Assembly: GCA_948442365.1 (NCBI GenBank)
Contig: CAOJRU010000004.1
Span: forward strand, 4,304 to 68,303
Source of the DNA: an uncultured Clostridium sp.
GTDB taxonomy: Bacteria > Bacillota > Clostridia > TANB77 > CAG-508
Length of the DNA: 64,000 nucleotides
Direction of reading: 5' to 3'
Part shown: in pieces, positions 8,109 to 62,184 of the stretch
Numbering within the stretch: the first letter of the stretch is position 1
How the letters are laid out: the number at the start of each line of letters is the position of its first letter
Made by a program: the position numbers and the translations under genes
The notes under the pieces: model-generated
The model's database searches: none
What the model saw: the letters and a program-made list of their open reading frames with translations, nothing else
Told to the model about the DNA's origin: nothing

Positions 8109-8696
8109 CTATGTTTGTGGTACTACTTGTGTACCTGAAACAATTACCTTGAAAGTATAAGTAGCAATATCTTTTGCATTTTGTGTATCAATTTTGTCAT
8201 TTTCTGCTATTTCTGTTTCATTGTTTCCTGTTTCGTAATCCCATTTCCAATGAATTGTTAAAGTTTTGATTTTGTTTTCATCATTGGCATGAATCGTTCC
8301 TGATAAATTATTTTGTAACTCATTTACCGAACTGTATTCTTGCCCGTCATAGACAAATTTTAAGTTGGTTGGTTTGGTACTTTCTTCTGTAAATTCAATA
8401 CAATAATTAATCCCTACATCCGATCCTGTTCCGTCTACCATAATGTTAAAACTTCCCCTTGTGCCTGGTGCTATTTTATTATTTACTAATGTTTCATTAT
8501 TACAAGTAGAAGCTAATTGAATGGTTTGCACTTGTTCTTGTTGTCCATTAACTTTAAAACTCCATGTTGCTACTTCCGCTATTCCATCTCCTCTTACTTC
8601 TGATACATATTTAGAATAACTTTGACCTCCTATAAAGGATACAATAACACAAGATAAAATAGCTATTATGGCTATTATTTTTTTCTTTTTGCTCAA
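8109..8696 (-). CDS. secreted protein, paralog of 6705..7313 (TasA/camelysin-like, tentative)
   Basis: The track ORF extends to 8831, but AGGAGG lies 8 nt before the in-frame TTG at 8696. The product starts (M)SKKKKIIAIIAILSCVIVSFIGGQSYSKYVSEV, a signal peptide with a GGxSY motif reminiscent of SipW-cognate signals. It shares KIAPGT and IHWKWDYE motifs with 6705..7313. Confidence 0.5.
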   Translation of the reverse strand: MSKKKKIIAIIAILSCVIVSFIGGQSYSKYVSEVRGDGIAEVATWSFKVNGQQEQVQTIQLASTCNNETLVNNKIAPGTRGSFNIMVDGTGSDVGINYCIEFTEESTKPTNLKFVYDGQEYSSVNELQNNLSGTIHANDENKIKTLTIHWKWDYETGNNETEIAENDKIDTQNAKDIATYTFKVIVSGTQVVPQT

Positions 8697-8993
8697 TAAG
8701 CATGCCTCCTTTCTTTTTAAATTTTTCGTTTGGATTTTTTTCGATAAAATTTTCGAATTAAAATTTCTTTGAATGAATATAGAAATTTGAAAATGTATCC
8801 ACATTATAATCCCATTTTTTGGAATTGTCAATTATTTTTCATCGCAAGTTTCGACATTTTTTGAGATTTGTAAAAATAAAAATTTAACTCTTGACTTTTC
8901 CAATTTTTTACAATATAATGTTTAATATTTTCTATCTTTTATTTCTTATATTTCCCCTTAAAATTATATATAAACTGAAAGGAGGCATGTTTA

Positions 8994-9443
8994 TTGCACA
9001 AAAAAACAAAAATTTTTATCGCTTTATTTTTTATCTTTATTTTTAGTATCTTTTCTCAAACTGCTTCAGCTAAATATGTAATAGAAGATATCCAACTGGT
9101 AGCCAAAATAGATATTGACCGCTGCCAACCTAATATTCAACTTATGGATATTACTTCTTCGAATACTAATTATTCAACCTATGCCAATCAAAATCATTTA
9201 ATCACTGGACATCTCAAAATAATAGAAAAAAATATTACTCGAAATGATTTATCCATAGATAATATAAAAGTTATCGTTAATAATGATTTGGTTACTCCTG
9301 AATTTAAAAGCTTTTTTCTAGTTTCTGAAAATGCTATTGAAAAATTATACGAATTTTCTTTTACACATACAACCAGTAATGGTTCTTTAACTCTGATGAT
9401 TCCTGAAGGGGTTGTAGAGGATAAATCACGGTTTAATCAATGA
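8994..9443 (+). CDS. secreted protein, N-terminal part (signal peptide); probably the 5' piece of a frameshifted gene that continues in 9418..10347
   Basis: Signal peptide MHKKTKIFIALFFIFIFSIFSQTASA. It ends at a TGA at 9441. The +1 frame is open from 9418 to 10347 with no RBS or credible start. Confidence 0.5.
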   Translation: MHKKTKIFIALFFIFIFSIFSQTASAKYVIEDIQLVAKIDIDRCQPNIQLMDITSSNTNYSTYANQNHLITGHLKIIEKNITRNDLSIDNIKVIVNNDLVTPEFKSFFLVSENAIEKLYEFSFTHTTSNGSLTLMIPEGVVEDKSRFNQ

Positions 9444-22834: not shown

Positions 22835-23287
22835 TCAACTAATTTTCAATAATTTTTCTTCCATATATTGTTGCCCTAATTCAAGTCTATGTATTCTGGC
22901 ATTAAATATTTTATGTTCTTCTCTATTTATTTCTAACTCTTTTAATATTTCCTTTTGAATTTTTATGCTTTGATCCAATGTTGCTTGTATTTTGTTATCT
23001 CTTTTCTCCAAAAATATAACAATTTCATTTAATTCTTGTGCTATTTCTTTACTTTGTTTTCCTATCTTATTATCTACTTCTACTAATATTTTCTTGCTTT
23101 GTTGTTCCATCTTCTGATCTACTTCTTCTAATATCTTTTTACTTTGTTGTTCCATCTTCTGATCTACTTCTTCTAATATCTTTTTACTTTGTTGTTCCAT
23201 CTTTTGGTCTATTTCTACTCTTATCTCTCGTACTTCTTCTTTTACACCTTTAACTTCTGTAAGAATTGTTTCTAATATTTTTTCCAT
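22835..23287 (-). CDS. coiled-coil protein with three tandem 15-aa repeats (EVDQKMEQQSKKILE)
   Basis: Start chosen at MEKILETIL, with GGAGGTGAGAGA before the ATG. A 45-bp DNA repeat x3 lies at about 23093..23232. Confidence 0.5.
   Translation of the reverse strand: MEKILETILTEVKGVKEEVREIRVEIDQKMEQQSKKILEEVDQKMEQQSKKILEEVDQKMEQQSKKILVEVDNKIGKQSKEIAQELNEIVIFLEKRDNKIQATLDQSIKIQKEILKELEINREEHKIFNARIHRLELGQQYMEEKLLKIS
23093..23232. repeat. 45-bp tandem repeat x3 within the coiled-coil protein gene
   Basis: actttgttgttccatcttctgatctacttcttctaatatcttttt repeated with 1-2 substitutions. Confidence 0.8.
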
Positions 23288-23382
23288 TCTCTCACCTCCA
23301 TTGAAAGAATTATATAACAACAAATTTAGCTTGTCAACCCTATAAGTAAAATTTTATTATAAAATCAATTTATTATCGTATT

Positions 23383-28968: not shown

Positions 28969-30753
28969 TTATTCTTTTTCTCTAAAATGAATACCTATTA
29001 ATATTGGTAAACACGTAAACATACTATAAATATATCTAAATTCTCCAAATACTGGCGATGCAATGGTAGTCAACCATAAAATAGCCAATGGTACGTATAT
29101 AATTATTAAGTTATATTGCTTTCTATAAATAGCATACATTACCATCATCAATACTATCCAAAAAGTAAATCCTATACTATATAACATAGAATTTAATGGT
29201 AAATCTCTTCTATCTAGTAAGCTATCAAATTTCTCCAAATTTGGTAAGTCTACAATTGGTGTATCTTTTAATTGCAAAGTTGCCTCTTTTTCTTGTGTGG
29301 TTTCAAATACTTCTCTTCCCACTACCCAATGAATGGCTTCTGGATACCAATAACCATAATTGTTACATAAAAAAGACTCTATCGTTGCTCTTGGATATTT
29401 TAAAGCTAACTTTGCATATAATTTTACAAGTCCTATTTTATCCTCTGCAAATGCTTCATTACTAAAGTTATTTTTTACAGGATCGGATATTTTAGGAGTG
29501 TATACTTCTGCTAAATTATCAGTTGGCAAATATTTATAAATTCTCCATTTTTCTTCTTCTGTTAAGGTATCTCCATGTATTTTGGTAATTCTAGCAAATT
29601 GTTGTAATGGTATAGACAAGGCTTCTTTTGATGAACCTGGTTTTATGTGAAATAAAGAAAATACAGGGCCTTTCCAAATCATATAAGTGGCTAACACAAT
29701 ACAAGTGACAACAATTAATTTTTTATAATGTTGTCTTGCTAATACAAATAGACATGGAATGGTTAAAATTACAACATAAAGTCCATTATTTCTAAATAAA
29801 ATGGCTAATATCATACTAATGATTAATAAAATAATATTTCTTTTAGATTTCATAAAGCTTTCTTGATGAATTGCTATTTCTGTCATCATAATCGTGAAAA
29901 TTAGCATAACCGTAGCAAACGGAATATCTTTCCACATCGTAATACTATATAAACCATTAATGGGATAAAAAGCACAAAATAGTAGCGTTAATATTCTAAA
30001 TCTACTATCTACTTCTCTTTTTGCCATATAATAAATAGTAAAAGAAAAAATAGCAGATACCACCATCATTTGTACAATACTATAAATGGCTACTCCCAAA
30101 TTATAATTTCCTAATAACTTTCCTATATTCATGGCTATACTGATAAAAAAGGTATGAAAAACAGGATGATGATTTGTTAAATCATAAATTCCTAGTCCTT
30201 GACACATTTGTTGCATAGAATCTGGTGTGATAACACCTGGATAGTAATTAAGAAAATATGGTACCCATGCTACCAAAATAAGTCCCCATACCCAGAAAAA
30301 GGTTCTTTTGTTATTCGTAAACCACTTATGATTTCCCTTTAAAAATTCTTTTTCTTCTATTTTTACAAATATATTAGCTATCACAGCATATAATAGAATA
30401 ATATAGCCACATTCTTTCAGGATAGATTTCATAAGGGTTATTTGACTCTCTACAATGCCACTTAGATTTAAATAGGTATCTATTGAACTTCCTATTACTT
30501 CAAAAGTAGCTAATAGTATGGCTAATAAAATAGAACAAGCTTTTAATCTCCTATTTTCTATTTTGGCTATTTTATTTAGTAACCAATAAGTTAAAACAAA
30601 AAAGATAACCCAAAAAATAGAATTTCCTGTAAACGAATATCGAATGGCTGTGTTTTTATCCATATTCATGTTCATTGCAAAAGTTACTAAAATAGATAAT
30701 AATATTATTATAATTGGTTTTGTCTTAATCCATAAACACTTCACTTTTTCCAT
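28969..30753 (-). CDS. polytopic membrane protein, paralog of 48795..50585; candidate GT-C glycosyltransferase
   Basis: 594 aa. Shares YKDIPFATVMLIFTIMMTEIA ... FRNNGLYVVILT ... SPVFGEFRYIYSMFTCLP with 48795..50585. Confidence 0.4.
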   Translation of the reverse strand: MEKVKCLWIKTKPIIIILLSILVTFAMNMNMDKNTAIRYSFTGNSIFWVIFFVLTYWLLNKIAKIENRRLKACSILLAILLATFEVIGSSIDTYLNLSGIVESQITLMKSILKECGYIILLYAVIANIFVKIEEKEFLKGNHKWFTNNKRTFFWVWGLILVAWVPYFLNYYPGVITPDSMQQMCQGLGIYDLTNHHPVFHTFFISIAMNIGKLLGNYNLGVAIYSIVQMMVVSAIFSFTIYYMAKREVDSRFRILTLLFCAFYPINGLYSITMWKDIPFATVMLIFTIMMTEIAIHQESFMKSKRNIILLIISMILAILFRNNGLYVVILTIPCLFVLARQHYKKLIVVTCIVLATYMIWKGPVFSLFHIKPGSSKEALSIPLQQFARITKIHGDTLTEEEKWRIYKYLPTDNLAEVYTPKISDPVKNNFSNEAFAEDKIGLVKLYAKLALKYPRATIESFLCNNYGYWYPEAIHWVVGREVFETTQEKEATLQLKDTPIVDLPNLEKFDSLLDRRDLPLNSMLYSIGFTFWIVLMMVMYAIYRKQYNLIIIYVPLAILWLTTIASPVFGEFRYIYSMFTCLPILIGIHFREKE

Positions 30754-32140: not shown

Positions 32141-32214
32141 TTTTTTCTACTCTCCTATTTCTTTTTGTTTTGTATTATATCATACTTTTACCTCATGTCA
32201 ACCTTTCCCTTTTC

Positions 32215-32482
32215 TTTAAGTTTCAAGTTTTTTTGGTAAGATTAGCTCCCACCTCTTGGCATATAATATGGTTATTTTTCATAAATTCTTCGGTTCCCTT
32301 CATAATTCAAGGAATTCTAATATAATTTTACGGGTCCTTTCCAAGACAAGCTTGAACTCTTACCGTAAAATGATTAAGAATTCCTAATCTTACTCCAGTC
32401 ACATTCATCTTTTATTCAAAATAACCATATTATATGCCAAGAAGTAGAAGCTAATCTTGTGAGAAAAAAACCGAAACTTAAA
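32215..32482. repeat. structured intergenic element, family B copy 1 (about 268 bp; ~64-bp terminal inverted repeats; conserved ~110-nt core hairpin)
   Basis: Outer arms tttaagtttcaagtttttttggtaagattagctcccacctcttggcatataatatggttatttt (left arm) and aaaataaccatattatatgccaagaagtagaagctaatcttgtgagaaaaaaaccgaaacttaaa (right arm). The core aggaattctaatataattttacgg...ccgtaaaatgattaagaattcct is homologous to 47625..47829. Confidence 0.7.
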
Positions 32483-33969: not shown

Positions 33970-34112
33970 TTTTGTATTCTAACATTTATTTTTTTCGTTT
34001 TCAATACCATTTTTACTTTACAAGAAAAAAATCGAAACTTAAATTTTCATTTATTCTTGAAACTAATTTGCTGTTATGTTATCATAATAGCAAATTAGTA
34101 AGGAGATTATCT

Positions 34113-37277: not shown

Positions 37278-40200
37278 TTAATTATTTTTTTCTATCTGCT
37301 TTTCTTCTAGTTCCTCTTCTTCTATCTCCTCTTTTTCTTCTGGTTCTTCTTTTACTTCATCTTTTGGTTTTTCTATCAATTCTCCTTCTGTTTCTTCTTC
37401 CATCGTATCTGGTAATGAGTCTACTATTGGTAATTCTTCTTGCATTTCTGTTTCTTGTTTTACTTCATTTTTTTCTTCTGGCACTTCCATCATAAATGTT
37501 CTAGTAGTTACTGTTTCAAAAAGCATTTTGTTATTTCTTAATACTATTTTACTGTTTCCTTTGAACATTCCTACCATTTCATTTGGTTGCATATTTGCTT
37601 GTTGTGTCTTATTGGTCGAAGTATTATTATTGTTTGTTAATTTTACTTCAATGTAATATTCTTTGCTTGTATCTAAATCATATACTACTCTATCATAGTA
37701 GTAATTTAATCCACCTTCATGTACTACATGCATTCCCATACTATAACTTCCATCCGTTGCTTTTAATGTCATTTCTGGCAATCCATTTGGAATATTGGCT
37801 ACTCCATCTACCCATTCTGCTATTAAAATATTCCCATGTATATATTCTCTTCCTATTTCATTGAAATCAATATGCATTGTCTTTAAGTCTGTATTAATGT
37901 CTCCTTTGTATTTGCTTCCATCTTTCATCTTAATCTTATTGTCTTCTGCTACTAATTTAATGGCATTGTATTTTCCTATTTGTTTGTTTGGTAATTTAGC
38001 AATTTGTACCGTATTGGTTGAAATATTATTTCCATTTGTTAATTTTACTTCTATCACATATTCTTTGCTACTGTCTAAATTGTCCATTACTCTGTCATAG
38101 GTATAGCTTAATCCTCCATTATGTGCTAGATGCATTCCTGTCCAGAAACTTCCATCGGTTGCTTTAATAATCATTTCTGGTAATTTATTTGGTACATTCG
38201 CTACACCATTAATCCATTCTGCTATTAAAATTTCTCCATAAATGTAATTTCTTCCTACCTCATTTTGAGCTAAATCAATTGTTTTTAAATCTGTATTAAT
38301 ATCGCCTCTATATTCATTTCCTTTGAATACTATCTTATTGTTTTCTATGGTTAAGTTTTTGTCTTTGAACATACCTACATTTCTTGAAGCATTTAAGTTT
38401 GCTCTTTGTTGTTTGTTGGTTCCTATATTTTTATTTCCCGTCAATTTTACTTCTATATAGTATTCTTTTTTGATATCTAAATTATCAATTACTCTGTCAT
38501 AATAATAATTTAATCCGCCTACATGTGCTACATACATTCCCATACTATAACTTCCATCCGTTGCTTTTAATGTCATTTCTGGTAAGCCATTTGGTGTATT
38601 AGCCATTCCATCAACCCATTCTGCTATTAAAATATTTCCATGTAGATATTCTTTTCCTACTTCATTGATTCCTATATACATCGTTTGTAAATCAGTATTA
38701 ATATCCCCTTTATATAAGCTTCCGTCTATCATTTTTATTTTATTATTTTCTGCTATTAATTTTACTTGATCATATTTGCCAATTTCTTTATTTGGCAATT
38801 TAGCTATTTGTGCTTTGCTGTTTCCTTTATTATTGATACCTGCTAATTTTACTTCAATTTCATATTCTTTTGTTACATCTAAATTATCTACAACTCTGTC
38901 ATACGTATAACTTAGTCCTCCATTATGCACTAAATGAATTCCTGTCCAGAAGCTTCCATCCGTTGCTTTGATAATCATTTCTGGTAATCCTTCTGGAACA
39001 TTAGCTACTCCATTTATCCATTCTGCTATTAAAATTTCTCCATAAATATAATGTCTTCCTACTTCATTTTGAGCTAGATTAATTGTCTTTAAGTCTGTGT
39101 TAATGTTTCCTACATATACTGGTTTTATTTTATTATCTTCTAGTAATAGTGTTCTTCCTTTAAAAGTTCCAATTTCTTTATTTGGTAGTAATACGGTTTG
39201 TGTCTTTCTGTTTCCTATATTATCCTCTCCTGTTAAAGTTGCCTCTATATAATATTGTTTTGATAAATCGATTTCATCAATAAACACATCATAATAATAA
39301 TTTAATCCTTGTAAATGGCTAATATACATTGGAATATTTCTTGAGCCATCGGTTGCTTTTAGCACTAATTCTGGTAATGAATTTGGTACATAAGCAACAT
39401 TGTTTTTCCATTCTGCTACTAACATATTTCCACTAATATAATATCTTCCTTGTGCATTTTGGTTCAATTTTATTTCTTTTAAGTCAGTATTAATATCTCC
39501 TATATACCCTCCAGTAGAGAAATAAATTTTATTGTTTTTGGTTTTTATGGTAGTTCCTTTATATTCTCCTACTGTCATATTTGGCATATTTACGTTCTGT
39601 GTCTTATTGGTTGATATATTTTTATCTGTTGTCAATTTGGCTTCTAAATAATATTCTTTATTTGTATCTAAGGTATCTAATATTCTATAATAAGAATAAC
39701 TTAATCCTCCATTATGAGTTACATTGATTCCTTGCACAATACTTCTGTCCGTTGATTTAATTGTCATTTCTGGTATCGTTTTTGGTACACATGCTACCCC
39801 ATTCACCCATTCTGCTATTAAAACTTCTCCTGTTATATAACTTCTTCCATCTGCTTCTTTTCCGATTTGCATCGTTTTTAAATCTGTATTGATGTTTCCG
39901 TAATATTCAGGATTTGGCTCTTGTGAAAGTGTTGCTGGCATATTTTCATAAATTGGAATTACAAATTCAAAATCTCTATTTAATAATAATTTTGCTCTAT
40001 TATAGGCATCATACATTAAACTAGCCTCATTTTTAGCAGCCAATAAGTTTTGCATATATTGATGCCAATATAAACCACTATAACTATCATCCACATCAAA
40101 TTTTTGTAAATATAAGGTATTTTGTCCTACATTAAGATATTTGTCCTTAATAAAAGTTCCTCCGCCTGCAATGGATAATGATCTAGATGTCCAATTTTCT

Positions 40201-40922
40201 CGTAGTGCTCTGGCTAATCCATTCGTTTTTACCTCTGCTGGACTGTTTCCTGTTGCTCCTATACTAAATAGATTATATAACCCTTTATAAACTACGCCAT
40301 TGGTTCCTAAATATTCTTCTCCTGAACTTAAGGTAGAAGTTCCTGAGCTTCCTTGTTCTTGGATCGTTCTAGTTACCAAGTGAAAGGCATTTATATTATT
40401 GTCACGTGCTGCATTGTAAAGAGCAACTATGTTATCCCAATCTTCTGTTAAAAAAGAATTTTGTGCCGCTATATGAATGGCTTTTGTATCTAACGTACCT
40501 GCAGAAGTATCTAATTTTTGAAATTGAAATATATTTTTGGCATCCAAATATAAGCGTGGATCCATTAAGTATTTTATCGCTTCTTCTGACGCACAATACC
40601 ATCCTGTATCATATAATTTAGAACCACAATCTGGGCATCTCCACTCTTCTGAATAATTATTTGGTACTAGGTTTCTTCCATGAACTCTTTCATTTCTAAT
40701 AACCGTTTCCCAATCTAATTTTGTATATAAAACTTTTATCTTTGGATAAATGGTTTGTAATTGTTTTATTTTATCCTTATAACCAGGATATTTTGCCTCA
40801 TCAATCCCATTGATATCTGAGCTAATAGTAGCAGCTTGTACTTTACCTGTGTATAATAAAATAGCCACTAATACAGCCAATAAAAATATTCCGATTTTCA
40901 TAATCTTATGTACAAATTTCAT
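37278..40922 (-). CDS. secreted peptidoglycan hydrolase: N-terminal GH73-like N-acetylglucosaminidase domain, 7 repeats of a ~125-aa module, and an E/K-rich tail
   Basis: Signal peptide MKFVHKIMKIGIFLLAVLVAILLYTGKVQA. Catalytic region with GQNTLYLQKFDV...GLYWHQY (glucosaminidase-like). The repeats share GDINTDLKT...ILIAEW.NGVAN.P...PEM.IKATDGS...H.GGL.Y.YDRV.D.LD..KEY.IEVKLT. The last ~330 aa are identical to 41207..44530. Confidence 0.65.
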   Translation of the reverse strand: MKFVHKIMKIGIFLLAVLVAILLYTGKVQAATISSDINGIDEAKYPGYKDKIKQLQTIYPKIKVLYTKLDWETVIRNERVHGRNLVPNNYSEEWRCPDCGSKLYDTGWYCASEEAIKYLMDPRLYLDAKNIFQFQKLDTSAGTLDTKAIHIAAQNSFLTEDWDNIVALYNAARDNNINAFHLVTRTIQEQGSSGTSTLSSGEEYLGTNGVVYKGLYNLFSIGATGNSPAEVKTNGLARALRENWTSRSLSIAGGGTFIKDKYLNVGQNTLYLQKFDVDDSYSGLYWHQYMQNLLAAKNEASLMYDAYNRAKLLLNRDFEFVIPIYENMPATLSQEPNPEYYGNINTDLKTMQIGKEADGRSYITGEVLIAEWVNGVACVPKTIPEMTIKSTDRSIVQGINVTHNGGLSYSYYRILDTLDTNKEYYLEAKLTTDKNISTNKTQNVNMPNMTVGEYKGTTIKTKNNKIYFSTGGYIGDINTDLKEIKLNQNAQGRYYISGNMLVAEWKNNVAYVPNSLPELVLKATDGSRNIPMYISHLQGLNYYYDVFIDEIDLSKQYYIEATLTGEDNIGNRKTQTVLLPNKEIGTFKGRTLLLEDNKIKPVYVGNINTDLKTINLAQNEVGRHYIYGEILIAEWINGVANVPEGLPEMIIKATDGSFWTGIHLVHNGGLSYTYDRVVDNLDVTKEYEIEVKLAGINNKGNSKAQIAKLPNKEIGKYDQVKLIAENNKIKMIDGSLYKGDINTDLQTMYIGINEVGKEYLHGNILIAEWVDGMANTPNGLPEMTLKATDGSYSMGMYVAHVGGLNYYYDRVIDNLDIKKEYYIEVKLTGNKNIGTNKQQRANLNASRNVGMFKDKNLTIENNKIVFKGNEYRGDINTDLKTIDLAQNEVGRNYIYGEILIAEWINGVANVPNKLPEMIIKATDGSFWTGMHLAHNGGLSYTYDRVMDNLDSSKEYVIEVKLTNGNNISTNTVQIAKLPNKQIGKYNAIKLVAEDNKIKMKDGSKYKGDINTDLKTMHIDFNEIGREYIHGNILIAEWVDGVANIPNGLPEMTLKATDGSYSMGMHVVHEGGLNYYYDRVVYDLDTSKEYYIEVKLTNNNNTSTNKTQQANMQPNEMVGMFKGNSKIVLRNNKMLFETVTTRTFMMEVPEEKNEVKQETEMQEELPIVDSLPDTMEEETEGELIEKPKDEVKEEPEEKEEIEEEELEEKQIEKNN

Positions 40923-41206: not shown

Positions 41207-44200
41207 TTATTTACTCTCTTTCATTTTGTCTTTTTCTTCTTGTGTATCGTTTTTTTCTAACTCTTCTATTTCTTCGCTTTCTTTATCTTCTGCTTTTTCT
41301 TCTTTCTCTTCTTTTTTCTCTTCTTCTATTCTTGTATTTTCTATCGAATCTGTTGTTGGTAACTCTTCTAATATTTCAGTTTCTTGCTTTATTTCTTCTT
41401 TTTCTTCTGGTTTTTCTATCATAAATGTTCTAGTAGTTACTGTTTCAAAAAGCATTTTATTATTTCTTAATACTATTTTACTATTTCCTTTAAACATTCC
41501 TACCATTTCATTTGGTTGCATATTTGCTTGTTGTGTCTTATTGGTCGAAGTATTATTATTGTTTGTTAATTTTACTTCAATGTAATATTCTTTGCTTGTA
41601 TCTAAATCATATACTACTCTATCATAGTAGTAATTTAATCCACCTTCATGTACTACATGCATTCCCATACTATAACTTCCATCCGTTGCTTTTAATGTCA
41701 TTTCTGGCAATCCATTTGGAATATTGGCTACTCCATCTACCCATTCTGCTATTAAAATATTCCCATGTATATATTCTCTTCCTATTTCATTGAAATCAAT
41801 ATGCATTGTCTTTAAGTCTGTATTAATGTCTCCTTTGTATTTGCTTCCATCTTTCATCTTAATCTTATTGTCTTCTGCTACTAATTTAATGGCATTGTAT
41901 TTTCCTATTTGTTTGTTTGGTAATTTAGCAATTTGTACCGTATTGGTTGAAATATTATTTCCATTTGTTAATTTTACTTCTATCACATATTCTTTGCTAC
42001 TGTCTAAATTGTCCATTACTCTGTCATAGGTATAGCTTAATCCTCCATTATGTGCTAGATGCATTCCTGTCCAGAAACTTCCATCGGTTGCTTTAATAAT
42101 CATTTCTGGTAATTTATTTGGTACATTCGCTACACCATTAATCCATTCTGCTATTAAAATTTCTCCATAAATGTAATTTCTTCCTACCTCATTTTGAGCT
42201 AAATCAATTGTTTTTAAATCTGTATTAATATCGCCTCTATATTCATTTCCTTTGAATACTATCTTATTGTTTTCTATGGTTAAGTTTTTGTCTTTGAACA
42301 TACCTACATTTCTTGAAGCATTTAAGTTTGCTCTTTGTTCTTTATTGGTTCCTATATTTTTATTTCCTGTTAATTTTACTTCTATATAATATTCTTTTTT
42401 CGTATCTAAATCATAGATTACTCTGTCATAATAATATTTTAGACCTCCTAAATGTGCTACATGCATTCCCATACTGTAACTTCCATCGGTTGCTTTTAAT
42501 GTCATTTCTGGTAAACCACTTGGAATATTGGCTACCCCATCTATCCATTCTGCTATCAAGATATTTCCATGTATATATTCTCTTCCTACTTCATTTACTC
42601 CAATATACATCGTTTGTAAATCGGTATTGATATCTCCCCTATAAATACTTCCATCTATCATTTTTATTTTATTATTTTCTACTACTAATCTTACTTGATC
42701 ATATCTTCCAATTTCCTTATTTGGCAATTTTGCTATTTGTGCTTTGCTGTTTCCTTTATTATTGATACCTGTTAGTTTTACTTCAATTTCATATTCTTTC
42801 GTTGGATCTAAATTATCCATTACTCGATCGTACGTATAACTTAATCCTCCATTGTGTACTACATGCATACCTGTCCAAAAACTTCCATCCGTTGCTTTGA
42901 TAATCATTTCTGGTAATCCTTCTGGGATATTAGCCACTCCATCCATCCATTCTGCTATTAAAATTTCTCCATAGATATAATGTCTTCCCACTTCATTTCT
43001 GGCTAGGTTAATTGTCTTTAAGTCAGTATTAATAGCTCCTATATATGTTGGTTTTATTTTGTTATCTTCTAGTAATAGTGTTCTTCCTTTAAAAGTTCCA
43101 ATTTCCTTATTTGGTAATACTATAGTTTGTGTCTTTTGCTTTCCTATATTATCTTCTCCTACTAACGTTGCTTCTAAATAATATTGTTTTGCTAAATCTA
43201 ATGTATCTATTGCTACATTGTATTGATAATTAATTCCACTATCATACGTAATATTGACTGGTCTATCGATACTGTTATCTGTTGCTTTTAATCTTACCAC
43301 TGGCATTTTCTTTGGTATATTGGCTACTCCATTCACCCATTCTGCAATATATAGATTGCCTGAAATAGTATTTCCTTTTAGTTCTATTTGTTTTAAATCG
43401 GTATTAATATCTCCTACATATTCACCTGTTGAGAAATAAACTTTATTGTTTTTCGTTTTTATCGTAGTTCCCTTATATTCTCCTACTGTCATATTTGGCA
43501 TATTTATTGTCTGTATTTTATTATTTGATACATTATTAGCTGAAGTTAACTTAGCCTCTAAATAATATTCCCTATTAATATCTAAGGTATCTAATATTCT
43601 ATAATAAGAATAACTCAATCCTCCATTAGGAATCACATTCAATCCTTGTATAACTGCTCCATCGGTTGATTTGATTGTCATTTCTGGTGTACCATTTGGA
43701 ATATTGGCTACTCCATTCACCCATTCTGCTATTAGTACCTCTCCTGTTATATAGCTTCTTCCATCTGCTTCTTTTCCTGTTTGCATCGTTTTTAAATCCG
43801 TATTGATATCTCCTACATAGTCTCTTCTAAATAAATCTTTATTGGCAATAATCGCTTTTGCATCTGCTTCTGCCATTTTGTTTAACATAGCATCATTTAA
43901 ATAATGTTCTCTATCATAAGCGTTATTAATAAAAGCATGTTCTACTAATACAGCTGGAATATCCATATGCATTGGCCAACTTATAATACCATAATAATCA
44001 GCAACCGTTCCATCTGGATAGATGTCATTTGGTGTTCCTACTCTTACTTTTGGCTTAAAAGCAAAAGAACTAACTCCCACATTTCTTAAATTTTGTAATA
44101 TATCTTCTCCTAATTTATTAGAATATTCAAAATATCTTCTTTGTTTGGTATTATGTGTCACATATACTTCTGCTCCTGATAACCTACTAGAAGAATCGTT

Positions 44201-44530
44201 TGAATTAATATGAAAACTTACTAATAAATCGGCATTATTTTCTTTGGCTCTTTGTGCTCTTGGATATCTATCTAGTGTTTCCCAATCTTCCTTTGTTAAA
44301 ATCCCCTTAATTCCTGGTGTGGCATCTAATATTTCCTTTACTCTTACTGCTATTTTCCATGTTAAATCTTTTTCCACTAATGTTCCACCTTGTGCTCCTG
44401 GTTCACTTCCCCCATGTCCTGGATCCAGTGCTACTATAATATCATTTGCTGCATAACTGCATGTAGTAACAAGTAAGCATAACCCCATAAAAATCAATGC
44501 TGTCATTATTTTTATTCTTTTTTCTTTCAT
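41207..44530 (-). CDS. secreted N-acetylmuramoyl-L-alanine amidase (Amidase_3) with 7 repeats of the same ~125-aa module and an E/K-rich tail
   Basis: Signal peptide, then IIVALDPGHGGSEPGA...NADLLVSFHINS (Amidase_3 zinc ligand region). The C-terminal ~1 kb of DNA is near-identical to 37440..38400 (offset 3929; identical embedded track ORFs 37583..37864 and 41512..41793). Confidence 0.75.
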   Translation of the reverse strand: MKEKRIKIMTALIFMGLCLLVTTCSYAANDIIVALDPGHGGSEPGAQGGTLVEKDLTWKIAVRVKEILDATPGIKGILTKEDWETLDRYPRAQRAKENNADLLVSFHINSNDSSSRLSGAEVYVTHNTKQRRYFEYSNKLGEDILQNLRNVGVSSFAFKPKVRVGTPNDIYPDGTVADYYGIISWPMHMDIPAVLVEHAFINNAYDREHYLNDAMLNKMAEADAKAIIANKDLFRRDYVGDINTDLKTMQTGKEADGRSYITGEVLIAEWVNGVANIPNGTPEMTIKSTDGAVIQGLNVIPNGGLSYSYYRILDTLDINREYYLEAKLTSANNVSNNKIQTINMPNMTVGEYKGTTIKTKNNKVYFSTGEYVGDINTDLKQIELKGNTISGNLYIAEWVNGVANIPKKMPVVRLKATDNSIDRPVNITYDSGINYQYNVAIDTLDLAKQYYLEATLVGEDNIGKQKTQTIVLPNKEIGTFKGRTLLLEDNKIKPTYIGAINTDLKTINLARNEVGRHYIYGEILIAEWMDGVANIPEGLPEMIIKATDGSFWTGMHVVHNGGLSYTYDRVMDNLDPTKEYEIEVKLTGINNKGNSKAQIAKLPNKEIGRYDQVRLVVENNKIKMIDGSIYRGDINTDLQTMYIGVNEVGREYIHGNILIAEWIDGVANIPSGLPEMTLKATDGSYSMGMHVAHLGGLKYYYDRVIYDLDTKKEYYIEVKLTGNKNIGTNKEQRANLNASRNVGMFKDKNLTIENNKIVFKGNEYRGDINTDLKTIDLAQNEVGRNYIYGEILIAEWINGVANVPNKLPEMIIKATDGSFWTGMHLAHNGGLSYTYDRVMDNLDSSKEYVIEVKLTNGNNISTNTVQIAKLPNKQIGKYNAIKLVAEDNKIKMKDGSKYKGDINTDLKTMHIDFNEIGREYIHGNILIAEWVDGVANIPNGLPEMTLKATDGSYSMGMHVVHEGGLNYYYDRVVYDLDTSKEYYIEVKLTNNNNTSTNKTQQANMQPNEMVGMFKGNSKIVLRNNKMLFETVTTRTFMIEKPEEKEEIKQETEILEELPTTDSIENTRIEEEKKEEKEEKAEDKESEEIEELEKNDTQEEKDKMKESK

Positions 44531-47595: not shown

Positions 47596-47624
47596 AATCT
47601 CTCCTTTAATTAGTACTTTTCAGT

Positions 47625-47829
47625 TAATACTGTCAACCTAAAATATTATCCTAAAAAGGAAGACAGTTCGTTCAAGCTAATTTTCGTAGAAATTCTAAAT
47701 CCATTTTATGGCACCCTTCCACGTACAAGACGTGAACTCTTTCCATAAAATGAATTAAGAATTTCTATCTCAATTACTTTCAATTCACTGTCTTCCTTTT
47801 TAGGATAATATTTTAGGTTGACAGTATTA
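47625..47829. repeat. structured intergenic element, family B copy 2 (perfect 43-bp terminal inverted repeats; conserved core hairpin)
   Basis: taatactgtcaacctaaaatattatcctaaaaaggaagacagt and its exact reverse complement 120 nt downstream. The core tagaaattctaaatccattttatgg...ccataaaatgaattaagaatttcta is homologous to 32215..32482. Confidence 0.75.
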
Positions 47830-47848
47830 GTTGAATCGTAACATTAAT

Positions 47849-48802
47849 TTATTTCATTTTTAAATATAATTTGACATTAAATCTTAAAAGGAATCTTTTA
47901 ATTCGTTGCTTCCCATTATATGGCTGTATATTTCGATATAATTTTCTTTCTTTTATCTCTTTGATATATTCTTCAAAATCATTTCCTTTTAAGTTTTTTG
48001 CTTTTATAATAACCGTATTGGTATAATATCTTTTAATTCGTTCTTTTGATTGTTTACTAATATCCATCTTATCAATCTTTTTTACTGCGTTATCATAATG
48101 TAATAAAACATCTTTTACCTTTTTTTTATCTTTTTGATAATCTGAATTTCTCACAATACTATTATTCGTTTGTGAATAATAGTATCCATATTCATTGGTA
48201 GAAACCACACTTTGGGCTTGTATTAGTATTAACGGCGTTAAACCAAAATCCTCGTGATAAGTTCCTACTGTATAGCTAAAATGATAATCCATAAAAAATT
48301 CTCTGCGATATAAATAAATACATGCTACCTCTAAAAAAGTATCTTTGGGACACAATTTTTCAAAAGCTTCTTCTCCTGTACATTTTTCAAATATAGGACC
48401 ATCTAATTTTTGAATTTTATTTTCCTTCTCATCGATTGTTTGCATTTTAAATTTTATTAAATCTATGTTCTGTTCCTCATACTTTTCTAAATTTTTGTAT
48501 AAGTTCTTGTCAATATAATCATCTGAATCAATAAAGGATAAATATTTTCCTGTTGCATGCTGAACGCCATAATTTCTAGCATCGGATAATCCTCCATTTT
48601 CTTTCTTCCAGTATTGTATATTGACATTGTTTTGATTGTTTTCTATCCATTGTTTAATAACGGCTTCTGAATGATCGGTTGAGCCATCATTAATAATTAT
48701 GATTTCTAAATCTTTCATTGTCTGATTTTTAATGGATTCTAGACATCTTTCTACATATTTTTCTGTATTATATACTGGCACAATAACACTTATTTTAGGC
48801 AT
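47849..48802 (-). CDS. GT2 family glycosyltransferase
   Basis: ISVIVPVYNTEKYVERCLESIKNQ ... IIINDGSTDHS ... IDSDDY. Confidence 0.8.
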   Translation of the reverse strand: MPKISVIVPVYNTEKYVERCLESIKNQTMKDLEIIIINDGSTDHSEAVIKQWIENNQNNVNIQYWKKENGGLSDARNYGVQHATGKYLSFIDSDDYIDKNLYKNLEKYEEQNIDLIKFKMQTIDEKENKIQKLDGPIFEKCTGEEAFEKLCPKDTFLEVACIYLYRREFFMDYHFSYTVGTYHEDFGLTPLILIQAQSVVSTNEYGYYYSQTNNSIVRNSDYQKDKKKVKDVLLHYDNAVKKIDKMDISKQSKERIKRYYTNTVIIKAKNLKGNDFEEYIKEIKERKLYRNIQPYNGKQRIKRFLLRFNVKLYLKMK

Positions 48803-50585
48803 GTATTTCTCCTTTTTCTTCTTTTAAACTGATTCCTAATAATAATGGTAAACAAGTAAACAAACTATACACATATCTTGGCTCTCCAAATACTGGAGAT
48901 GCTAAAATAGTAATCCACATACATAATACTGGCATATAAATTAAAAGTAAATTATATTTTTTAGTATAAATGCAATATGTCATTCCAAATACCATTATCC
49001 AAAATAAAAATCCTATACTCAAAAACATACTAATAATTGGAATTTTTCTTGTATTTACAAATTCATTTATACGATCTAAAAAACTAAAGTCAACTAATGA
49101 TTGTTGTTGAATTCCGTAATCTTTCCCATTATTATGGAAGTCTTCTTCATTAACGCCTGTATATATTCCCCATCCTAAAGTATTTGGATAGTAATAACCA
49201 AAAGAATTACAAATCCAAGAGGCTATGGTTTGCATTGGATATTTTACTGCTAATTGTAAATAAGTTTTTAGTAAGGTTCTCTTATCTTGTTTAAAAACAT
49301 CATCTGGTGCTTGGTTTTTAATAGGATCGGCAAATACTGGATTGTATAATTCCTCTATATGTTCCATTGGCAAATAGTGAGCAATAGCTTCTTTTTCTTG
49401 TATTGTTAATTCATTTCCTTTATATTTTGTTATTCTTGCAAACTGTTGTAAAACAATCGAAAACGCTTCCTTAGAAGATCCTTTCTCTATCTTACATAAG
49501 TTATAAATAGGACCTACTACAATAAGGCAACTTACAATTCCTGTTAAAAAAATAAGTCCTATTTTTATTTTATATTTTTTAACCATCAGCATAATAATTG
49601 GAAGGGTTAGTATCATAACATACAATCCATTGTTTCTAAAGATAGCTACTAAAAAGCAAGCTAATATGGTTAATAGTATTCTTATTTTATGTTTCATAAA
49701 GTTTTCTATATTAGTTGCTATCTCTGTCATACAGATTGTCAGGGCCAACATGGCTAAAGCAAAAGGGATGTCTTTATACATAGTAATCGTTAAAAAAGAA
49801 ATAGTAGGACATAGTGCATAAAATAAAACACTACCAGCTCTTATTGGCAAAGCTACTTTCTTTTTAGCCATATAATAAATACTATAAGAAAATAGAAAAC
49901 ACGTTGTTAATGTTTGGATTAAAGTGTAAATAAAAGCTCCAAAATTATAACTTCCTGTTACCCAATGTCCAAATTTAATACACAATGTAATAATTGCTGT
50001 ATGAATTGGTGGATGGTGTGTAGTAAACTCCCAATCTCCCATTCCTTGCATAATTTGTACTGTAGAATCAATTAACACATTACCTGGATAATAATATAAT
50101 AGATATGGCAAATATGCCATTAAAAAGATAATGGCTACAACAAAAATTGACTTTTTATTTCCCGTAAAAAATGGATATTCTTTTTTTGATTTCAGTTTTA
50201 ACATCACATTTGGCAAGCTTCTCATCATAATAATGGTAATAGATGTTATTACGACAAAGCACACTTCTGCTTTGCACAAAAGCATTAGTATTTCTTTTTT
50301 CGCAATTCCTATATTTCCAACCAAATATCTTTCTGCTGTATAGCCTGTTATAGCAAAAATAGATGTTATGAATCCAAAAAACATAGAGCAAATAAACAAT
50401 CTCTTACTTCCACTTTCAAATGCTCTCCCTAATAAAATATCAATTACCACCAATAGAATGATCCATTTGAAGTGATTTCCGTCTAGTTCAAAAGATCCTT
50501 GTACTACTTCTACACTCATACACAAAGTTGTGATAATTGCTAGGATAAATCTTACCATTCTTTTGTGCTTTTTTAATTTCCCCAT
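48795..50585 (-). CDS. polytopic membrane protein, paralog of 28969..30753; candidate GT-C glycosyltransferase
   Basis: 596 aa. Conserved blocks with 28969..30753: YKDIPFALAML, FRNNGLYVMILT, ASPVFGEPRYVYSLFTCLP. Confidence 0.4.
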   Translation of the reverse strand: MGKLKKHKRMVRFILAIITTLCMSVEVVQGSFELDGNHFKWIILLVVIDILLGRAFESGSKRLFICSMFFGFITSIFAITGYTAERYLVGNIGIAKKEILMLLCKAEVCFVVITSITIIMMRSLPNVMLKLKSKKEYPFFTGNKKSIFVVAIIFLMAYLPYLLYYYPGNVLIDSTVQIMQGMGDWEFTTHHPPIHTAIITLCIKFGHWVTGSYNFGAFIYTLIQTLTTCFLFSYSIYYMAKKKVALPIRAGSVLFYALCPTISFLTITMYKDIPFALAMLALTICMTEIATNIENFMKHKIRILLTILACFLVAIFRNNGLYVMILTLPIIMLMVKKYKIKIGLIFLTGIVSCLIVVGPIYNLCKIEKGSSKEAFSIVLQQFARITKYKGNELTIQEKEAIAHYLPMEHIEELYNPVFADPIKNQAPDDVFKQDKRTLLKTYLQLAVKYPMQTIASWICNSFGYYYPNTLGWGIYTGVNEEDFHNNGKDYGIQQQSLVDFSFLDRINEFVNTRKIPIISMFLSIGFLFWIMVFGMTYCIYTKKYNLLLIYMPVLCMWITILASPVFGEPRYVYSLFTCLPLLLGISLKEEKGEIHA

Positions 50586-61405: not shown

Positions 61406-61666
61406 GTAAGTCAACTCCTTTCAGCACTTTTGGCAAAAAAAGATAATAAAGTTATATAAAGCATACTAACATTTAATAACTTTACTGGATTTTTTAACCA
61501 TTTCTATTATACAACAAAAAATGATAAAAGTCAAAGCCTTTATCCTTGTTTTTCTCCTTCTATTTTGTGTCTATCCCGCTATTCTCTAAGTATAAATTTT
61601 TTTTATTTTTTTTTATATTCTAGGAAAGTTCGACTAAAAGGAGAAACTTTCCGTAGAAGATAGTTA

Positions 61667-61717
61667 TGCAGATTAACAAATTCTTAAAAACTTTGTTTTT
61701 TAGAATTTGTTAATCCG
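61667..61717. terminator. perfect 14-bp inverted repeat hairpin adjacent to the dut stop, with a T-run on the plus strand
   Basis: gattaacaaattct-(17 nt)-agaatttgttaatc followed by cgcttttttatt. Confidence 0.4.
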
Positions 61718-61722
61718 CTTTT

Positions 61723-62184
61723 TTATTGATTGGTAGAACCAAATCCACCTATCCTTTCTCCTTGTGCCTCATCATCATCTACTATTAGATACTTTTGGAA
61801 AATAGCTTGTCCAATTGCCTCTCCTTTTTTTATGGTTATATCTTCTTCCTTAATATTATAAAAAGCAAACATAAAATGGCCATCATTATCTGGATTCCCA
61901 TAATAGTCTTTGTCTATCACACCTACACTATTTGCCATGATTAATCCTTTTTTCTTTGGATTCGAACTTCTATTATACAACATCATAACTTCGTCTTCTT
62001 GCATATAAGCTTTTAATCCTGTTTTTACTAAAGTAGGATTCATTCCCTTTTTAAAACTTGGTATTACTACGTCTTCTGCTGCTTCTATATCATATCCAGC
62101 TGAATATTTTGTTTTTCTTACTGGTAAATTGATTTGACTTTGTTCAAATCCTTTTGCTATTTCAAAACCTCTTAACTTTTCCAT
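61723..62184 (-). CDS. dut: dUTP diphosphatase
   Basis: AGYDIEAAED ... SVGVIDKDYYGNPDNDGHFMF dUTPase motifs. Start set at MEKLRGF (GGAGG before the ATG at 62184). The track ORF begins 60 nt upstream. Confidence 0.8.
   Translation of the reverse strand: MEKLRGFEIAKGFEQSQINLPVRKTKYSAGYDIEAAEDVVIPSFKKGMNPTLVKTGLKAYMQEDEVMMLYNRSSNPKKKGLIMANSVGVIDKDYYGNPDNDGHFMFAFYNIKEEDITIKKGEAIGQAIFQKYLIVDDDEAQGERIGGFGSTNQ

Follow-up and report, generated by a model that had tools for sequence, protein, structure and literature searches.

Two palindromic elements in a glycopolymer locus of an uncultured Clostridium probably belong to a family of miniature inverted-repeat transposable elements of gut Clostridia

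The window analyzed here is a stretch of 64,000 nucleotides from an uncultured Clostridium sp. (GenBank assembly GCA_948442365.1, contig CAOJRU010000004.1, positions 4,304 to 68,303), and it carries two related hairpin-forming elements within a gene cluster for a glycopolymer, copy 1 at positions 32215-32482 and copy 2 at about 47622-47831. Probably, both are members of a family of palindromic MITEs (miniature transposable elements with inverted repeats) that is scattered over many uncultured gut Clostridia, and neither represents a dedicated regulatory RNA for polysaccharide genes. An earlier inspection of this DNA from its letters alone (hereafter the sequence-only reading) had left the choice between a non-coding RNA and a MITE. 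The defining features of MITEs have been described (PMC10969869, PMC3184786), and the latter option is borne out: members of the family are small and non-coding, possess terminal inverted repeats (TIRs), are flanked by 9-bp duplications when young, occur as dispersed copies, and share one type of end, tip A, with a partner insertion sequence (IS). This disposes of an attractive but misleading idea, that of a new riboswitch-like RNA belonging to a capsule operon, and it defines a widespread MITE family in small-genome uncultured gut Clostridia by its termini, its 9-bp duplication and a candidate partner of the IS4 superfamily.

Two Long Palindromes with a Common Centre

Both copies are long imperfect palindromes that share a centre of about 85-125 nt when they are aligned, while the sequences of their arms are unrelated. 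The boundaries of copy 1, a palindrome of 268 bp with tip-A ends and no assigned strand, were fixed independently by an element in another genome (L061), which aligns with 90.7% identity over exactly positions 32215-32482 and is embedded in unrelated flanks. Copy 2 (about 210 bp, likewise without an assigned strand) has other tips (..TAATACTGTCAACC / GGTTGACAGTATTA..) and matches, over positions 47622-47828, the loci L158 (91%) and L107 (84%), again with unrelated flanks. The extent originally proposed for copy 1 hence stands, while copy 2 is slightly larger than had been thought.

The arms of copy 1 (32215-32285 and 32411-32482) consist of a 58-nt repeat at 84% complementarity and 19-nt tips. 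Its left tip (TTTAAGTTTCAAGTTTTTTT; 32215-32234, plus strand) matches the TIR of the IS described below (TTTAAGTTTCGGTnTTTTT) as well as the tips of sister MITEs, and the right tip (AAAAAAACCGAAACTTAAA; 32464-32482, plus strand) has a reverse complement, TTTAAGTTTCGGTTTTTTT, that equals the left end of this IS over 18-19 nt. Between tips and centre, the left arm (32235-32285) is the partner of the right arm (32411-32463); neither is assigned a strand. The former was recognized as an inverted repeat and from double substitutions relative to L061, and the latter holds three positions that yield C·A on the plus and G·U on the minus strand. Inside the arms lie two segments of about 25 nt each that are not complementary to each other: the left one (32286-32309, plus strand; ..ATAAATTCTTCGGTTCCCTTCATAATTCA), with a TCGG motif, is semi-conserved in the family profile and consensus and unpaired in the folds, and on the right there is (32386-32410, plus strand; ..TAATCTTACTCCAGTCACATTCATC..) a CACATTC motif, that is conserved in the family profile and consensus. 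The core hairpin itself (32310-32385, plus strand) matches the covariance model of the family with 116 bits and is backed by the pair counts from 103 sequences. It is built from stem A (32310-32318/32377-32385), stem B (32325-32333/32363-32371), an asymmetric internal loop (GTCCTTTC / AACTCTTA) and an inner hairpin (32342-32345/32351-32354) closed by the loop ACAAG (32346-32350).

Copy 2 follows the same plan. Its left arm of 44 nt (47624-47667) pairs near-perfectly with the right arm (47787-47830), both without an assigned strand, and the complementarity extends to 111 nt at 80% overall. The core hairpin (47688-47766, plus strand; 107 bits) contains stem A (47688-47696/47758-47766), stem B (47703-47711/47743-47751), the loops CACCCTTC / AACTCTTT, and an inner hairpin (47720-47724/47730-47734) with the same ACAAG loop. 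In stem A, aggaattc/gaattcct of copy 1 is replaced by agaaattc/gaatttct in copy 2; stem B reads ttttaYgg/ccRtaaaa. Further inward, an internal loop that is asymmetric and rich in pyrimidines (5' side, ..CCYTTCCA; 3' side, TGAACTCTT..) leads to the short ACAAG-loop hairpin. Each of the compensations that had been quoted for the two copies is present, namely ttttaCGG/CCGtaaaa versus ttttaTGG/CCAtaaaa in stem B, the changes in stem A, and caag-acaag-cttg versus cacgt-acaag-acgtg in the inner hairpin.

Either strand of either copy folds into a single long hairpin much more stable than shuffled sequence. For copy 1, the folding energies are -88.4 kcal/mol (z -11.7) on the plus and -109.6 kcal/mol (z -14.3) on the minus strand, and for copy 2, they are -99.0 kcal/mol (z -18.4) and -107.8 kcal/mol (z -18.4), respectively. 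The window has a G+C content of about 29%, and nearly all of its genes are carried by the minus strand. A search of the window with the covariance model built from 103 distinct copies gave no confident match beyond copies 1 and 2. Weak scores of 24.7 and 19 bits (E about 0.07-0.9) were obtained for the two strands of a palindrome in an intergenic gap at 61646-61740; this hairpin is probably not related to the family.

A Family of Covarying Palindromes in Uncultured Gut Clostridia

With a degenerate pattern of the core, searched in one genome per species, we recovered at least 118 loci, about 110 of which are true copies. The family thus comprises at least 110 copies in about 55 species-level genomes, with up to seven per metagenome-assembled genome (MAG) among the matches listed; the counts of orientations, neighbors, open reading frames (ORFs) and mismatches given below also refer to the copies among those matches. 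Almost all hosts are MAGs of uncultured gut Clostridia (human, rabbit, chicken, sheep, and mouse), among them Clostridium sp. CAG:780, CAG:575 and 26_21, together with one complete chromosome of 1.55 Mb. The host genomes are small and have a G+C content of roughly 29%. Elements range in size from 180 to 560 bp, which is within the span of about 50-600 bp expected of MITEs, and share an anatomy of TIRs at the tips, complementary arms of 20-200 nt, two non-complementary segments, and an asymmetric central hairpin of about 85 nt. The sequence of the arms varies by subfamily, and in 93 of the 108 distinct copies examined they reach at least 25 nt at a complementarity of 80% or more.

The core alignment and the covariance model were both built from 103 distinct copies. 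RNAalifold predicted 19 pairs from these cores, 12 of them with double changes. When a structure of 26 pairs was scored over the 103 copies, 93.1% of the cells held standard pairs versus 81.7% in column shuffles, and 262 cells were changed on both sides versus 70.5 in the shuffles, none of 500 of which reached so high a value. Sliding the partners by 1-3 columns caused pairing to fall to 36-51%. The exchange of pairs is evident, for example, at columns 41-130 (AU 73, UA 14, CG 8), 53-117 (AU 72, GC 18, UA 7), and 72-98 (CG 60, UA 19, AU 17). Hence, the compensatory changes first noticed between two homologous hairpin-forming elements hold up in sequence, in folds and across the aligned family, and the stems covary far above both the shuffled and the slid-partner controls. 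Covariation of this kind is, however, equally expected from a DNA hairpin or palindrome.

A profile search added five more divergent copies with one to three changes each, in which loops that had seemed invariant were altered (CCCTTTCA, TGAACATTT, CGAACCCTTT). As these five copies were found independently of the pattern, the invariance of the loops in the main set must in part have been imposed by the search pattern itself. Three copies of the family were present within 5 kb of a single MAG (L158, JAAWGB010000005.1; 3060-3256, 7126-7231, and 7883-7986); two of them possess the variant loops CCCTTTCA / TGAACATTT and have lost the bulged C beside the inner hairpin.

At the gathering score, Rfam detected nothing but tRNAs in the whole window and gave no match to the elements; on copy 1, with E values of up to 10 allowed, only models of plant miRNA precursors, which are generic long hairpins, were hit, far under their cut-offs. 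The view that nothing known matches the elements is therefore upheld, eps-associated RNA (EAR) being included among the families that did not reach the threshold. No match to copy 2 was present in plasmid and phage collections. Among viral contigs, we found one truncated copy (L045), and the remaining matches to the core and tip patterns were due to chance. A full-text literature search with the core and tip sequences retrieved no paper. Judged by these comparisons with Rfam, plasmids, phages and the literature, the family appears to be a previously undescribed one of the MITE type.

Termini, Target-Site Duplications and Dispersal

When copies from one MAG are compared, their similarity continues for about 420 bp and breaks off sharply at the termini TTTAAGTTTCGGTTTTTT ... 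AAAAAACCGAAACTTAAA. This sharp break reveals the ends of the mobile unit, and they are the tips of copy 1 in the window, whose terminal repeats read TTTAAGTTTC..../....GAAACTTAAA; those of copy 2 are TAATACTGTCAACC/GGTTGACAGTATTA. Near-identical copies reside at unrelated sites, L061 (90.7%) in the case of copy 1, and L158 (91%) and L107 (84%) in the case of copy 2. Direct repeats of 9 bp flank the elements at L061 (AAGAACGCT), L121 (AAATACTTA), L114 (TTTTAATTT), and L082 (ATTAAATCT), and these target-site duplications mark young copies. Another such duplication (ATTAAAAT+) flanks a differently filled element with the same tips, a MITE of 190 bp (L142; 4970-5160) whose interior lacks the central hairpin; the MAG in which it resides is the one nearest to copy 1 of the window. 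Since the interior of the L142 element differs, tip-A ends mobilize more than one kind of cargo.

Related genomes differ in the presence or absence of an element (L100 and L157 versus L122). A comparison of the window with syntenic loci, made in search of empty sites, found one flank alone in common, and for two pairs of copies that are located beside the same gene (L057/L160 and L096/L137) a common insertion site could not be shown. Within the species of the window, copy 1 is spanned by three contigs and copy 2 by six, one of which is from GCA_948709255.1, and each copy has a single orientation. A rearranged strain variant (L175) retains about 45 nt of one arm, next to which a different upstream gene is found.

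The window itself contains a solo tip-A terminal repeat (AAAAAAATCGAAACTTAAA; 34025-34043, plus strand), detected in the tip search, with neither a partner tip nor a core. It lies in the intergenic DNA from which the 494-aa gene and a DUF6080 gene diverge, and it is probably what is left of a further element from this group of transposons. Several Logan contigs of the window species (L177, L178, L182, L183, and L190-L193) start or stop within elements, near the centre of the core or at an arm boundary. Palindromic repeats of this type hence fragment short-read assemblies of this lineage, and repeats that break assemblies could also mislead screens for non-coding RNAs and invertons in these genomes.

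A Partner Insertion Sequence for the Tip-A Ends

A scan of metagenomes with the 18-nt tip yielded 120 loci. In seven of these, TTTAAGTTTCGGTnTTTTT bounds both ends of an element that is about 1.56 kb long and has a single ORF of 418 aa. Clear 9-bp duplications were seen at three of the seven (L259/L310, AAATAATAA; L282, AATAACTAA; L271, ATATTTGA+), and duplications of this length fit IS4-type elements, for which 9-12 bp and short TIRs are expected. The ORF matches the Pfam model PF01609 (DDE_Tnp_1) with 46.7 bits (cut-off 23; E = 4e-12), while its scores with the NCBIfam models for IS4 and IS701 (29-48 bits) are far under the cut-offs of 115-250. We therefore regard the predicted protein as a DDE transposase of the IS4 superfamily, whose membership of the IS4 family proper is not secure. 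The contig flanks of the IS are 68-78% identical to loci from Clostridia MAGs, a degree of identity that places it in the same bacterial lineage as the MITE family.

The IS and the MITEs are alike in their tips alone, and the family centre is absent from the IS. The 19-nt terminal repeat of copy 1 equals the left end of the IS; the right ends of the IS differ at TIR position 14. Copy 1, having the ends of this IS, is thus a non-autonomous element bounded by them, and, by analogy to other such pairs, it was most probably inserted by the IS transposase acting in trans and could be moved again by the same enzyme. Copy 2 has the same centre between different ends, and neither for these ends nor for the 190-bp "L057-type" subfamily did we find a partner IS. 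Likewise, 0.9 Mb of loci contained no autonomous element split at the core, that is, half-sites with a gene between them, nor were there any repeats larger than 500 bp common to different loci; the extra DNA beside the element at L165 encodes no transposase-like gene. A larger element of 2.6 kb (L326; 10237-12871), possibly nested or chimeric, combines the same tip-A repeats with another transposase of 394 aa (DDE_Tnp_1 plus DDE_Tnp_1_assoc).

Several observations have to be set against an interpretation of the family as MITEs. Across species, it is the asymmetric centre and not the termini that is conserved best, and both tips and arms differ by subfamily; in classical MITEs the pattern is the opposite, and the conserved centre may thus point to some function of this part of the element. 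Neither the window nor the 118 genome loci yielded a copy of the IS. The duplication at copy 1 itself is a degenerate match (7/9) only, and copy 2 has no visible target duplication and no partner IS that we could find. A base-precise empty site was not found, the intergenic DNA of different species being too diverged for this purpose, and the six sampled contigs that extend across copy 2 all contain it, with no change of orientation.

Pairing of the Arms Is Not Specific for RNA

The sequence-only reading had attributed the compensatory changes to selection on RNA structure rather than to simple duplication. On this account, the elements would be structured cis-acting RNAs, transcribed together with the glycosyltransferase genes and regulating the polysaccharide operon by an EAR-like or antitermination-like mechanism. 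It can draw on the significant covariation of the stems, on the conserved asymmetric internal loop, and on the circumstances that both window copies lie between genes of the same strand and that the minus strand, which is that of the genes, folds somewhat better. A comparison of mismatches speaks against it. If the folding of read-through transcripts had been selected, G·U pairs should dominate on the transcribed strand, but the arms of 93 elements contain 132 G·T and 115 A·C mismatches, and this balance holds both where the flanking genes share the direction of the element (++; G·T 73, A·C 71) and where they oppose it (--; G·T 63, A·C 54). In the core, 6 G·U and 11 A·C cells were counted, both as rare as other mismatches. 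There is thus no excess of G·U, either overall or by transcribed strand; Watson-Crick pairing in the family is strand-neutral, and the pairing is not specific for RNA.

The three C·A mismatches that had been noticed in the outer stem of copy 1, and that had been taken as G·U wobbles of the minus strand, are indeed present, but their reading as wobbles does not hold. L061 has perfect Watson-Crick pairs at these three positions, and in the promoter-proximal arm of the strain variant L175 the alternative allele is found. The mismatches are thus either common transitions or a patchwork of two alleles of the arm, and they do not reflect a tolerance for wobble pairs. Further irregularities of the outer stem are located close to the tips. 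Compensatory base changes alone are consequently no proof of an RNA structure, as palindromic mobile DNA yields the same signal, and the G·U versus A·C strand test can tell the two apart.

Gene Neighborhood and Possible Effects on the Host

All 115 copies inspected are intergenic. With respect to their neighbors, 38 were found in the ++, 23 in the --, 14 in the +-, and 14 in the -+ arrangement (38 versus 23, p = 0.07), so that 28 of the 89 copies with a called gene on each side are positioned between convergent or divergent genes. The proteins encoded by the 205 nearest genes fall into 171 unrelated clusters, among them an ABC transporter, rubrerythrin, a penicillin-binding protein and a peptidase; no transposase, recombinase, recurrent neighbor or enrichment of polysaccharide synthesis was detected among them. 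Scans for promoters and terminators revealed nothing conserved within the elements. The proposed link to the glycopolymer operon, and with it the analogy to EAR, is not supported by these 171 unrelated clusters and four orientation classes. EAR and the present family have a single feature in common, the polysaccharide gene cluster in which the window copies lie, whereas the family has no Rfam match, no association with polysaccharide loci and no fixed orientation. Together with neighbors that are unrelated housekeeping genes, the lack of a terminator-like feature, and the orientation flip at an orthologous locus (see below), and with target duplications and IS-type termini that show transposition, these findings leave a cis-acting regulatory RNA of the polysaccharide operon very improbable, and its role as a gene-specific regulator is largely refuted.

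The genes around the two window copies are as they had been described, on the same strand in both cases. Copy 1 is flanked by a 494-aa gene without a Pfam match and by a 70-aa ORF that is followed by a GT1 gene, and copy 2 by two GT2 genes. A gap of 2 nt separates copy 1 from the stop codon that terminates the 494-aa gene. On the other side, with its -35 box 14 nt from the left end of the element, there is a perfect consensus promoter of the sigma-70 type (minus strand, 32201..32174; 12/12 matches; TTGACA, 16 nt, TG-n-TATAAT) that is directed towards the 70-aa ORF and the GT1 gene. Given its position between a stop codon and the next promoter, copy 1 occupies a terminator-promoter gap and is not inside a single transcript. 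Copy 2 fills the gap between the two GT2 genes, beginning 18 nt past the stop codon and ending about 27 nt before the next ATG, which is preceded by a ribosome-binding site; in this position it would be transcribed within the message as a hairpin of about -108 kcal/mol.

In 49 of 62 co-directional cases in the family (p = 4e-6), the core is nearer to the upstream stop codon (median 65.5 nt) than to the downstream start codon (130 nt). The elements settle just 3' of genes, like many bacterial intergenic repeats, and are therefore expected to be co-transcribed as very stable hairpins. By analogy to the Correia, ERIC, and REP repeats (PMC3184786), such hairpins could provide an RNase III site, protect 3' ends, or cause partial termination or polarity. 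Any such effect on the host would presumably be a generic by-product and not a dedicated control of polysaccharide genes.

We also considered that the centre might encode a small protein, a notion with next to no probability. Copy 1 has an open minus-strand frame of 26 codons (MNVTGVRLGILNHFTVRVQACLGKDP), and so do some of the other copies, all of these frames ending at the same TAA. In a survey of 109 copies, however, three different frames were used, 51 copies had no ATG-initiated ORF, most of the others had one of 12-13 codons, and no ribosome-binding site was present. With neither the frame nor the start conserved, the small peptide was rejected as a candidate.

Inversion of the Centre and Evolution of the Arms

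At one orthologous locus of two species (L134, OV788638.1; L140, CAKPHD01), the flanks are 92-95% identical and the 27-bp arms of the element align, while the central segment of about 140 nt is reverse-complemented. As judged from this alignment, the asymmetric centre was flipped in place between its inverted-repeat arms. The inversion is one between species, not within a population. Among inter-species pairs that share one flank alone, seven had the same and ten the inverted orientation.

The arms themselves change in a coordinated manner. Copy 1 and L061 differ by four fully compensated double substitutions (32257/32439, 32260/32436, 32261/32435, and 32264/32432), and in same-genome copies of the 190-bp subfamily a segment of 3-7 nt varies in sequence and length, with an exact mirror in the other arm. 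Such mirrored insertions and deletions are hard to obtain through independent compensatory mutations and for this reason suggest recombination or gene conversion from arm to arm, or template switching. We infer that processes of this kind mainly maintain the complementarity of the arms, and the inversion of the centre may be the crossover outcome of the same arm-to-arm process. The short stems of the core (8-12 bp) are more likely to be kept by selection for a hairpin, be it in DNA or in either transcript. A constant centre between variable ends, together with mirrored changes in the arms, may make these elements a natural system for arm-to-arm conversion and inversion in short bacterial palindromes.

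These data also bear on a different explanation, in which the asymmetric centre is a functional module that was moved between transposon ends, either as a protein-binding DNA hairpin or cruciform, as an inverton-like segment, or as an RNA motif with a promoter of its own. Whereas arms and tips vary, the centre is kept in about 55 species; its stems covary, it is found with at least three kinds of ends, and tip-A ends in turn enclose another interior. Moreover, the centre is absent from the IS, has been inverted in situ between inverted-repeat arms, and is accompanied by direct-repeat-like motifs (ACATTC; CTTYCCA) on each side of the palindrome. On the other hand, no promoter is conserved at a fixed spacing (the spacing depends on the inner hairpin), and the neighborhood contains neither a recombinase gene nor any other gene that recurs. 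In the window species, orientation did not differ among the sampled strains, the invariance of the loops is partly an ascertainment effect of the search pattern, and inversion between inverted repeats can be a passive by-product. We thus consider this explanation rather unlikely, and there is perhaps an outside chance that the centre of about 85-140 nt (GGCACCCTTCCA - variable hairpin - TGAACTCTTTCC; stems A and B; flanking ACATTC) is a selected functional module and not transposon filler. Were this so, the centre would have been captured repeatedly between different transposon ends, its orientation would be switchable through recombination between the arms, and transposons would have spread a regulatory or structural DNA or RNA device across a whole lineage of gut Clostridia.

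In invertons, site-specific recombinases flip a segment that lies between inverted repeats, as in the cwpV and flgB switches of Clostridioides difficile. The present elements resemble them in that an asymmetric segment of about 140 nt is located between inverted repeats and was found in both orientations at an orthologous locus. They differ in that there is no recombinase gene nearby, no conserved inner promoter or terminator, and no heterogeneity of orientation among the sampled strains; furthermore, their arms lack conservation from copy to copy, and the unit can transpose.

Comparison with Known Repeats

A palindromic MITE, the reading that we favor, has several counterparts among known bacterial repeats. 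The Chunjie MITE of Geobacter uraniireducens is an A+T-rich element of 178-235 bp with 21-bp TIRs, 9-bp direct repeats and folding energies of about -98 to -130 kcal/mol (PMC3184786). It is similar to the elements studied here in size, A+T richness, intergenic location, TIRs (about 19-20 nt here), 9-bp duplications, folding energy (-88 to -110 kcal/mol here) and multicopy nature, but it shares no sequence similarity and resides in another phylum, and in our family the centre and not the ends is most conserved, with several kinds of ends in use. The MIC231 cassettes of the Bacillus cereus group have the ends of IS231, a member of the IS4 family, and are mobilized in trans by the IS231 transposase (PMC6199540). 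Like our elements, they are non-autonomous elements of Firmicutes with the ends of an IS4-superfamily DDE transposon and an autonomous partner in the lineage. However, MIC231 is 0.7-3 kb in size and carries genes, whereas the elements described here are non-coding and palindromic, and their mobilization in trans is proposed by analogy.

The Bacillus cereus group also has the bcr1 repeats, which measure about 155 bp, are transcribed, and have a structure maintained by compensatory changes (PMC3184786, PMC6199540). The likeness consists in an interspersed intergenic repeat of Firmicutes with features of mobile elements and a hairpin preserved by compensatory changes; in contrast to our family, whose pairing has no strand preference, bcr1 has 5-bp TTTAT duplications, no known IS partner and a structure that is discussed at the level of RNA. 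ERIC and the Correia/NEMIS elements are imperfect palindromes of 104-157 bp that are co-transcribed with their neighbors and affect the processing or stability of mRNA (PMC3184786). As imperfect intergenic palindromes that occur in either orientation, often 3' of genes, and are co-transcribed, they offer a plausible model for effects on the host. They belong, however, to Proteobacteria, have TA duplications, are shorter and lack sequence similarity to our elements, and their effects through RNase E and RNase III are documented, while those considered here are conjectural.

Other Features of the Window

Two paralogous modules (28969-30753 and 48795-50585), separated by about 19.8 kb, are found in the glycopolymer region, each comprising a DUF6020 membrane protein and glycosyltransferases, with short conserved stretches between them (30009-30048 / 49853-49892). 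Also in the window are two adjacent, paralogous giant genes on the minus strand (37278-40922 and 41207-44530; 1214 and 1107 aa), built from tandem repeats of about 402 nt (134 aa), 11-12 units in total. A stretch of 300 nt is 100% identical between them (37594-37893 = 41523-41822), and their sole Pfam match is a weak one to NOV_C; they likely encode repetitive surface proteins that undergo recombination. A further set of four to five tandem repeats of 45 nt (15 aa; 23027-23251) is located in a 162-aa ORF (22835-23323, minus strand). Finally, an inverted repeat of 46 nt (83%; 8677-8722 / 8968-9013) covers the starts of two divergent genes (8109-8831, minus strand; 8994-9443, plus strand), and since AAAGGAGGCATG is present in each of its arms, the two gene starts mirror each other.

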